The position numbers and the translations under genes were made by a program. Shown here in pieces: positions 1 to 617 of a stretch of 617 nucleotides of DNA. Numbering within the stretch: the stretch's first letter is position 1; each line of letters opens with the position of its first letter. The stretch is from Escherichia coli (GTDB taxonomy: Bacteria > Pseudomonadota > Gammaproteobacteria > Enterobacterales > Enterobacteriaceae), in the NCBI RefSeq assembly GCF_003334255.1, contig NZ_QOWU01000208.1; one strand, written 5' to 3'. The notes beneath the pieces were generated by a model, which was given only the letters and a program-made list of their open reading frames with translations, did not search any database and was not told where the DNA came from.

Positions 1-617
1 CCGAAATTTTTCGAAATTTCCGCGAATTTACTGCGATCCCTGACAAGCTCAACAGCCTTATCAACAGGCACCGCCAGCACGGTTTGATCATCAGGATGTG
101 CACTGCCGTATTCTGTTACAGGTTTATGCGCGGTGGAGCCATCGCTGTATGTGAGATCAAGGCCAATAAGTACGTACCCTTCCTGCTGCGCCGGTACGAT
201 ACTGCCAATCCTGGCCTCTTTTATCGTCTTTTTCCCGGTTGAATCGGGCATGCCAATACGCTGTTGCAGTTCCGGGCCAAACACCCCGGAAAGGACATCA
301 AGATTCTCCGGCGTATTAAGTGAAGCGATAGCCCTGTCCGGCTTGTCATCAAAGATTTTTTGCAGGTTGTTCACGGCCTGACCCGCTTTCGCTACATAGC
401 CATCATTCGCCATCAGCCTCAGCGGATTACCCTCTGACAACTGGCCGTAAAGACGCATTGCGGCATCCCGATCGCCAGCATCCACAGCCTTTCCAAGCGC
501 CGCCATCACAGGCTGATCGCGCGCCAGCATATCGTTATACTCAAGCCGTCGCTGGTTGTATTTCTGCATCCGGAGTCGCTGCTGCTCCATACCCAGCGAC
601 GCATTCCGGTAATTCTG
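1..617 (-). CDS. Internal fragment of a larger protein-coding gene (5' and 3' ends both outside the window); hypothetical protein of unknown function
   Basis: Reverse-complement frame with codons at + positions 617..615, 614..612, ... 5..3 is open for 205 codons with no stop; the other two minus frames hit stops within about 30 codons, and all three plus frames are interrupted (the longest, 133..381, is 82 codons). Chance of 205 stop-free codons in random ~53% GC sequence is roughly 5e-5. Translation (N->C): QNYRNASLGMEQQRLRMQKYNQRRLEYNDMLARDQPVMAALGKAVDAGDRDAAMRLYGQLSEGNPLRLMANDGYVAKAGQAVNNLQKIFDDKPDRAIASLNTPENLDVLSGVFGPELQQRIGMPDSTGKKTIKEARIGSIVPAQQEGYVLIGLDLTYSDGSTAHKPVTEYGSAHPDDQTVLAVPVDKAVELVRDRSKFAEISKNF. 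Amino-acid composition is protein-like and balanced (not low-complexity), with CTG-dominated Leu and GCG/GCC Ala codons. No start codon can be assigned: internal ATGs (e.g. codons 10, 17, 30) lack a well-spaced Shine-Dalgarno sequence and the frame stays open to the window edge. Confidence 0.85.
2..29. repeat. Three phased copies of CGAA(A)TTT in an AT-rich patch embedded in the coding sequence
   Basis: Direct reading: cgaaattt at 2-9, cgaaattt at 12-19, cgaattt at 23-29, i.e. spacing of 10 and 11 bp. The motif contains the self-complementary AAATTT core and the palindrome TTCGAA lies at 10-15. GC of positions 1-30 is about 33% against about 53% for the window. On the minus strand this stretch encodes ...RSKFAEISKNF. 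Confidence 0.3.

Follow-up and report, generated by a model that had tools for sequence, protein, structure and literature searches.

Phage proteins of a 'small gp15-like' class are about 430-500 amino acids (aa) long, and one protein of this kind, P22 gp20, is injected at about 30 copies (PMC8954989, PMC8402733). P22 gp20, Sf6 gp12 and T7 gp15 represent a class of podovirus ejection proteins that form a periplasmic tunnel, and the P22 gene stands last but one in a cluster behind the tail-needle gene, directly before the gene for the largest internal protein. The same place is taken, in 933W-like lambdoid podophages, by a late gene called ORF79 (ECs1241) in the Shiga toxin (Stx) prophage Sp5 and gp48 in phage phi24B. 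The DNA analysed here, a stretch of 617 nucleotides (nt) from Escherichia coli (RefSeq assembly GCF_003334255.1, contig NZ_QOWU01000208.1; hereafter the window), is, judged by its sequence, a piece of an orthologue of that gene. We consider it rather probable that ORF79/gp48 is an internal virion (ejection) protein, one that would leave the particle with the DNA and would add to a trans-envelope conduit together with the giant polyvalent protein encoded beside it.

Two published data sets bear on this gene. Mondal et al. systematically deleted Sp5 genes of unknown role and found ORF79 among nine newly identified essential genes (PMC5155283). The Sp5 delta-ORF79 prophage was excised normally, DNase-resistant DNA was packaged and the heads looked normal; no plaques and no lysogens were obtained, and the defect was rescued by expression of the gene in the producing cell (PMC5155283). 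In phi24B, the tail has been resolved into the portal gp72, the adaptors gp64 and gp62, the nozzle gp57, the needle gp56 and the lateral fibre gp61, and the authors propose polyvalent gp47 (2,811 aa) as an ejection protein packaged in the capsid (bioRxiv 10.64898/2026.04.10.717836). Their proteome contains gp48 (421 aa) with 1,634 peptide-spectrum matches (PSMs) in total and a gel-slice peak beside the 409-aa capsid protein; the batch digest gave 179 PSMs, above the portal, making gp48 the fifth most abundant phage protein (bioRxiv 10.64898/2026.04.10.717836). Estimates of its abundance range from 18 to 56 copies per virion and average about 30; under structure-based abundance it is entered as 'ND', as are three further virion proteins, gp51 (about 22 copies), gp50 (about 36) and gp47 (about 19) (bioRxiv 10.64898/2026.04.10.717836). 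The phi24B tail model is complete without gp48, which has neither homology to, nor an assignment as, any resolved tail component. The whole block of genes leading up to the giant gene, together with the giant gene itself, thus encodes particle proteins that lie outside the ordered structure: gp48, gp51, gp50 and gp47 are in the virion and have no structural assignment. The main text of the phi24B study does not mention gp48, and its supplementary sheets label the protein 'Transcription factor?' or 'hypothetical protein' (bioRxiv 10.64898/2026.04.10.717836).

The only stop-free frame in the window runs on the minus strand from base 617 through 205 codons, and every other frame contains stops. 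The best phage match to the window by megablast is Escherichia phage PhiR5_2 (99.7% identity); relative to the PhiR5_2 coding sequence XSB41416.1 there are 2 nt differences, at + 462 and 471. The full gene has 1,266 nt and encodes 421 aa annotated as 'hypothetical protein'. Over this length the PhiR5_2 protein aligns without gaps to Sp5 ECs1241, also of 421 aa, with 87% amino-acid identity, and tryptic peptides of phi24B gp48 map to identical residue numbers in ECs1241. PHROG 601, a family annotated as 'unknown function' that includes the 933W/VT2-Sakai protein H0149, matches residues 1-421 at E = 3.8e-203. A search of the window against Rfam returned no RNA family.

The window's gene thus corresponds to Sp5 ORF79 and phi24B gp48 in length, in its neighbours and in a bias towards rare arginine codons, which is described below. 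It differs from them in allele. The window carries the variant found in PhiR5_2 and in a prophage of strain G1/2, phages that are stx-negative and tRNA-less, the prophage being located at ynfG and not at wrbA. This variant contains a patch divergent from Sp5 (Table 1), in contrast to + 118-217 of the window, where nt identity to Sp5 is 98-100%. The mosaic pattern suggests recombination between alleles.

The neighbourhood of the gene is conserved. In PhiR5_2, G1/2 and Sp5, the ORF79-type gene lies between a gene for an 83-84-aa protein and one for a giant polyvalent protein of ~2,790 aa. The order adaptor, fibre, nozzle, needle, a few small genes, ORF79-like gene and polyvalent protein of 2,800-4,700 aa is kept in distant relatives, being seen with a homologue at 36% identity, with one whose identity is about 21-29%, according to the measure used, and in a large group of Vibrio phages. 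The giant proteins carry LPD5/LPD1/MuF_C/LPD38-39 domains, and the nozzle, needle and fibre of the 933W-like phages are encoded by ORF70-, ORF71- and ORF67-like genes, the first two assigned to PHROG 511 and 496. This gene order resembles that of P22, in which the needle gene (26) and gene 14 are followed by those for the ejection proteins 7, 20 and 16.

The most telling finding is a physical link to the ejection proteins in P0144, a natural fusion protein of 1,386 aa (GCA_051468635.1, CP195798.1; 10001-14161 of the fetched stretch). It combines an ORF79-family segment with the C-terminal part of a gp20-type protein and a near-complete gp16 homologue (Table 1). In P0144, an ORF79-type module replaces the N-terminal part of a gp20-type ejection protein and is joined covalently to gp16. 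The gp16 part was settled by BLASTP and PHROGs; a precomputed PF26808 match on P0144 was not reproduced with the local Pfam library, and by BLASTP P0144 resembled neither the giant ORF80 nor gp20. The gene for P0144 is not part of a phage structural operon; it belongs to a small island that also encodes an integrase, regulators of the AlpA type, Bro-N proteins and a DUF927 primase. This layout looks like that of a phage satellite carrying its own ejection protein.

There are other points of likeness to the gp20/gp15 class. The 421-aa protein is close in length to the group of P22 gp20, Sf6 gp12 and T7 gp15 (431-471 aa) and to the published range of the class (about 431-499 aa), it is mostly helical in an AlphaFold2 (AF2) model, which is a weak criterion, and, like P22 gp20, it is associated with the virion at about 30 copies and has no ordered density. 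The motif 'GFLAGI' of P22 gp20 resembles an N-terminal 'GFLxGF' in ORF79, both being too short for significance.

An exhaustive search of 1.84 billion representatives returned 71 relatives of the protein in all, and the AF2 model was built from a family alignment of 48 divergent members. The model of the 421-aa protein has a pLDDT of 85 and is helical nearly throughout: a long N-terminal helix is followed by a further helical region, a small beta sheet and a helical C-terminal half. Residues 4-128 are predicted to form a single very long alpha-helix, and a length of ~18 nm was calculated from the model for these 125 residues. The beta-sheet core (predicted strands 213-224, 230-239, 244-248 and 264-266) carries the motif ...GK.I..K.L....DG.G....L.VTY.DGST..KPVT. 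and is the region to which the matches of the Vibrio phages are confined. Residues G204, G242, P248, T250 and D259 are nearly invariant over the 48 divergent members, and among 99 close homologues entropy is lowest at residues 221-260 and higher at residues 121-160. The long N-terminal helix is highly polar and unlike a classical heptad coiled coil. Residues 41-73 of it, which fall outside the window (PhiR5_2 stretch 12645-12743), contain repeats of the form 'RDF(E/D)(F/Y)' / 'RDYAL' with spacings of 18 and 11 residues.

Database searches placed the protein in no described family other than its own. Pfam gave no match for the 421-aa protein or for any of the 48 family members, and the 421-aa protein had no match in NCBIfam or, by sequence and by profile, in the PDB. 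A BFVD search returned members of its own family only. The PHROG matches were limited to 601 and 15571, with none to 917/2534. Comparison of the family profile with P22 gp20 by hhalign was not significant (probability 0.6%), nor was that with P22 gp16. A homologue search seeded with P22 gp20 retrieved near-identical Salmonella sequences only and no diverse gp20 profile.

In the mechanism we favour, a few tens of copies of ORF79/gp48 would be packaged inside the particle with the neighbouring small proteins and the adjacent polyvalent protein of ~2,800 aa. Upon needle release the packaged proteins would exit through the tail, and they would then help to assemble or lengthen the conduit through which the DNA crosses the envelope. 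ORF79/gp48 would in this way be a functional counterpart of P22 gp20 and T7 gp15, and not a sequence homologue of either. That it works like an ejection protein is moderately supported, by its context, its localisation and the fusion; membership of the gp20/gp15 family fails on sequence. We infer the ejection and conduit role; essentiality and the unordered presence in the virion are taken from the literature, while the identity and mobility of the gene, its codon statistics, the synteny and the domain fusion are results of the present analysis.

Several observations weigh against an ejection role. Homology of ORF79/gp48 to gp20, gp15 or gp16 is not detectable with Pfam or hhalign: the protein falls into PHROG 601 and not into 917/2534, it has no significant sequence or profile similarity to the class of P22 gp20 (PF16928), and no counterpart of its conserved small beta-sheet core has been identified in the gp20/gp15 class. 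The copy numbers of gp48 rest on peptide counting, which departs 1-3 fold from stoichiometries that are known. Ejection-protein mutants of P22 have complete tails, so the fibre-less phenotype of a delta-ORF79 mutant is not accounted for by a role in ejection alone. Particles of the Sp5 mutant, reportedly without tail fibres, were unlabelled by an antibody against the lateral fibre (anti-ORF67), and the gene was classed under 'tail formation', its exact role being given as unknown (PMC5155283). The phenotype of packaged DNA, normal heads and no anti-ORF67 labelling is the same as that of the nozzle (ORF70) and needle (ORF71) mutants (PMC5155283). It would suit a tail-assembly or tail-lumen structural factor, for instance a plug or template in the portal-adaptor-nozzle channel that is needed before the nozzle, needle and lateral fibres attach. 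Diffuse unassigned density is indeed present in the phi24B adaptor lumen and is lost on ejection (bioRxiv 10.64898/2026.04.10.717836), and the length of the predicted helix seems plausible for a tail channel. We nevertheless regard such a factor as unlikely, as all ordered tail density of phi24B belongs to gp72, gp64, gp62, gp57, gp61 and gp56, about 30 copies are many for a lumen plug, and the fusion with gp20- and gp16-type segments points to the ejection set. Moreover, the immuno-electron microscopy negatives were reported as 'data not shown' (PMC5155283). The two readings also overlap: a protein of the lumen counts as an ejection protein if it exits along with the DNA.

The constant position of the gene directly upstream of the giant gene, which extends to Vibrio phages and to homologues with roughly 20-36% identity, would also fit a protein whose main task is to help package the giant one. 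ORF79/gp48 would then serve as a chaperone or tether, recruit the ~2,800-aa protein into the procapsid and travel with it, and would not itself form a channel. The delta-ORF79 and delta-ORF80 phenotypes are identical (PMC5155283), and gp48 (about 30) and gp47 (about 19) have similar estimated copies per virion. P0144 speaks against this reading, since there an ORF79-like domain occurs without an LPD-type giant protein and is fused to gp20/gp16-type modules; we hold it to be improbable, and it overlaps with the ejection role that we favour. A non-structural protein that merely co-purifies with virions, such as a transcription factor, is very improbable indeed. The proposal goes back to the question-marked label 'Transcription factor?' in an early phi24B supplementary table. 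Pfam searches detected neither a DNA-binding domain nor any other, gp48 ranks fifth among the phage proteins of the batch digest and ahead of the portal, the final abundance sheet places it among the candidate structural proteins as a 'hypothetical protein', and its loss is complemented by supply in the producer cell only. We therefore reject the identification of gp48 as a transcription factor, which is known solely from that label.

A broader form of the ejection hypothesis strikes us as evenly poised between right and wrong. PHROG 601 would be an unrecognised DNA-ejection family of the gp20/gp15 class and, with the conserved upstream genes and the giant protein, would form the ejectosome of a widespread podovirus lineage. 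The upstream genes would be those for the gp7-like 218-aa protein, the 148-aa protein and the 83-aa glycine-zipper protein, the lineage would comprise the 933W-like Stx phages and many Vibrio phages, and the N-terminal module of PHROG 601 would be interchangeable with that of gp20-type proteins.

The neighbouring genes have features of their own. The 83-aa gene directly upstream of the window's gene (PhiR5_2 stretch 12874-13125, minus strand) encodes a C-terminal glycine-zipper and matches PdsO/YiaD glycine-zipper and microcin E492 models. Its synteny is kept in distant relatives, where the product has 84-86 aa, or 77 aa in a Vibrio phage. The phi24B supplement set aside gp49, the orthologue of the 83-aa protein, as a 'bacteriocin' contaminant (bioRxiv 10.64898/2026.04.10.717836). 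The 83-aa protein may be a membrane-inserting part of the same module. Further upstream, a 218-aa ORF76-like gene (PhiR5_2 stretch 13584-14240, minus strand) encodes an Ala/Gly/Gln-rich protein with the N-terminus 'MGGSKGGGDTK...AAQIAQEE', which resembles, in this segment and in composition, the leader-cleaved P22 gp7 ('KGGKGGADKS...AAEAQKYAA'). Homology to P22 gp7 is suggestive and was not accepted, the pairwise BLASTP E being about 0.03. From the constant offset between ORF and ECs numbers, we infer that Sp5 ORF76 is ECs1238, the 218-aa protein. Deletion of Sp5 ORF76 strongly reduced infectivity (PMC5155283), which fits a role of the whole block in DNA delivery.

Residues 2350-2677 of the giant 2,789-aa protein of PhiR5_2 match DarB-like antirestriction proteins in PHROG. 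Relatives differ in the cargo that lies downstream of this gene. In PhiR5_2 (583-3009) and G1/2 it consists of IbrA/IbrB (PAPS-reductase-like and ParB-like) and a Panacea-domain gene; in Sp5 (34956-38325) other small genes and a hok/mok module are found.

Codon usage was what first marked the window as unusual. An earlier note, made from the letters of the window, had described arginine codons dominated by AGG, CGG and CGA and had taken them as a hint of an accessory or horizontally acquired gene. On recount, the 14 arginine codons of the minus frame were exactly as described, in composition (AGG x4, CGG x4, CGA x2, CGT x2, CGC x2, AGA 0) as well as in the positions of AGG (Table 1), and the GC content, put at ~53%, was measured as 53.2%. 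The note had also seen a preference for CTG and GCG; GCG is indeed preferred (11/21), and CTG is not, as CTT is the commonest leucine codon (9/19, against 7/19 for CTG). Two of the four AGG sites of the window encode Met or Ile in Sp5.

For comparison we used 42 annotated E. coli core genes with 943 arginine codons, taken from the K-12 mra/fts/ace region and from the ynf genes that flank a prophage with the window sequence, together with 31 highly expressed genes of E. coli K-12 (ribosomal-protein, elongation factor and rpoA genes); the results below refer to these genes and not to the whole genome. CGA, CGG, AGA and AGG together make up 16.6% of arginine codons in the core set and 2% in the highly expressed set, compared with 10/14 in the window, which bears out the rarity of AGG, CGA and CGG in core genes on which the note had relied. 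AGG alone accounts for 1.3% in the core set. From the core frequencies, the probability of at least 10 rare codons among 14 is 8e-6, and that of at least 4 AGG among 14 is 2.6e-5. Among 377 core windows of 205 codons the highest share of rare arginine codons is 0.67, short of 10/14, and none contains more than one AGG. Thus, the core genes do not share the arginine distribution of the window; a shared distribution would have told against the note's hint. The leucine choice is also atypical, CTT accounting for about 10% in the core set (P = 4e-5), and so is that of aspartate (GAT 15/17). The codon adaptation index (CAI) of the window relative to the ribosomal set, a check that the note had proposed, is 0.33, lower than the core median of 0.41 and near the core 10th percentile of 0.34. 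The anomaly therefore lies mainly in the arginine and leucine codons; the CAI is low and not extreme, and there is no global collapse of adaptation.

It is textbook knowledge that prophage genes contain rare AGG, CGA and CGG codons and that Stx phages carry tRNA genes. The bias is a property of the whole late operon of the phage and not of this gene alone. The full gene contains 15/27 rare arginine codons in the PhiR5_2 and G1/2 allele and 13/24 in Sp5 ECs1241, while rare codons make up 36% of the pooled arginine codons in the other 17 genes of the PhiR5_2 late region (median per gene about 0.5) and 39% in the late operon of Sp5, or 46% there without the giant gene. The window is marginally richer in rare arginine codons than the late genes of its own phage (P about 0.008, uncorrected); it is barely above its neighbours, and we rejected the idea that its bias stands out within its phage. 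The giant gene of PhiR5_2 (2,789 aa; 3160-11529, minus strand) is far less biased than its small neighbours, with 23% rare arginine codons and a CAI of 0.43.

Sp5 carries three tRNA genes between Q and stx2 (20766-21017 of the fetched stretch): a tRNA(CAU) annotated as ileZ, tRNA-Arg(UCG), which reads CGA and CGG, and tRNA-Arg(UCU), which reads AGA and AGG. A cluster of this ileZ-argN-argO type occurs in 287 phage records, 933W included. Plunkett et al. reportedly proposed in 1999 that the Stx-phage tRNAs supply rare species for phage and toxin expression, and our search for ileZ/argN/argO with 'rare codons' found no open-access paper. As in these systems, AGG, AGA, CGA and CGG are enriched over core genes in the phages studied here. 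The rare codons could be an adaptive device that couples late translation to argN/argO tRNAs, whose transcription must await Q-dependent antitermination: the codons used in excess (CGA/CGG and AGA/AGG) are the ones served by the Sp5 tRNAs with the anticodons UCG and UCU, whose genes lie just downstream of Q, and stx2A is likewise rich in AGA and ATA. We doubt this explanation of the codon usage, because the gene is equally biased in PhiR5_2 and the G1/2 prophage, the giant gene of the same operon is much less so, and distant homologues in other hosts have many CGA, CGG and AGG codons too. No tRNA gene was found in a search of the two phages closest to the window, PhiR5_2 and the G1/2 prophage, both of them stx-negative. 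Since these two phages keep the bias without tRNA genes, it is independent of phage tRNAs, and in the phage closest to the window it is a legacy that is not self-compensated, in which it differs from the 933W ileZ-argN-argO type of system. We read the bias as a compositional signature of a phage lineage under weak translational selection, for which some relatives compensate with tRNAs of their own.

The distribution of the gene agrees with the mobility that the earlier note had suspected. By megablast the window is present in 421 of 5,426 complete E. coli genomes, in 1-4 copies each, and matches 186 phage records, Stx-converting phages in the majority, as well as 4 plasmid-labelled records; tblastn of the protein matches 288 phage records. 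Strain G1/2 has the gene within a lambdoid prophage of ~62 kb, which also carries lambdoid early genes and genes for lysis, terminase, portal and capsid. The prophage splits ynfG: a site-specific integrase at one end stands beside truncated ynfG, and a second ynfG remnant is found at the far end. In O157:H7 Sakai the orthologue ECs1241 belongs to prophage Sp5, inserted in wrbA. The gene is thus horizontally mobile, because it matches isolated phage genomes, is patchy among bacterial genomes and sits in integrase-bearing prophages at two insertion sites; it is not conserved across the species, whereas syntenic conservation across the genus would have told against the note's hint. An integrase, one of the mobile-element hallmarks that the note had named, is present, as is a split target gene, and att direct repeats of at least 12 nt were sought at the G1/2 prophage ends and not found. 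The word accessory holds for the bacterium and not for the phage lineage, where this is a conserved, essential late gene. RefSeq calls the G1/2 portal, major capsid, terminase, ORF76-like and giant genes frameshifted pseudogenes, the window's gene being intact, and an IS1 adjoins truncated lom in the same prophage. The pseudogenes reflect either a decaying prophage or indel errors of the assembly.

Table 1. Features of the window (positions 1 to 617, plus-strand numbering) and of the fusion protein P0144 (residue numbering).
Feature	Position	Strand	Remarks
Internal fragment of ORF79/gp48-family late gene (PHROG 601)	1..617	-	Codons 83-287 of 421; no start or stop codon inside
AGG Arg codon (CCT on + strand)	39..41	-	Kept in Sp5 ECs1241
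AGG Arg codon	210..212	-	Kept in Sp5 ECs1241
AGG Arg codon	333..335	-	ATG/Met at the same site in Sp5
AGG Arg codon	417..419	-	ATT/Ile at the same site in Sp5; within the divergent patch
Four clustered rare Arg codons	546..578	-	CGA 576-578, CGG 570-572, CGA 549-551, CGG 546-548
Other CGG codons	606-608 and 468-470	-	From the codon count of the minus frame
Divergent (mosaic) patch relative to Sp5	418..517	-	70-74% nt identity
C-terminal third (residues 83-128) of the predicted single very long alpha-helix, residues 4-128	480..617	-	AF2 model
Predicted small beta-sheet core, residues 213-266	66..227	-	AF2 model, pLDDT about 90; most conserved part of the family
ORF79-family segment of P0144	residues 5-356		PHROG 601, E = 3e-39
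C-terminal part of gp20-type family in P0144	residues 346-480		PHROG 2534, 'released from the phage upon host infection'
Near-complete gp16 homologue in P0144	residues 745-1383		PHROG 770; 36% identity to P22 gp16, E = 2e-77 (BLASTP)

Much of this was already known: the gene with its knockout phenotype (2016), its detection in the virion (2026), the link between rare codons and prophages, and the tRNA genes of Stx phages. The codon-usage flag itself matters little, the hint of horizontal origin being correct and ordinary. What had not previously been put together for this gene is the 2016 knockout, the 2026 virion proteome and the natural gp20/gp16 fusion, which in combination lead to a testable assignment. 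Among the essential late genes of Stx phages, which are of medical importance, ORF79 is one of the last to lack an assignment, and the way in which these phages deliver their DNA through BamA-bearing envelopes bears on the spread of stx genes.

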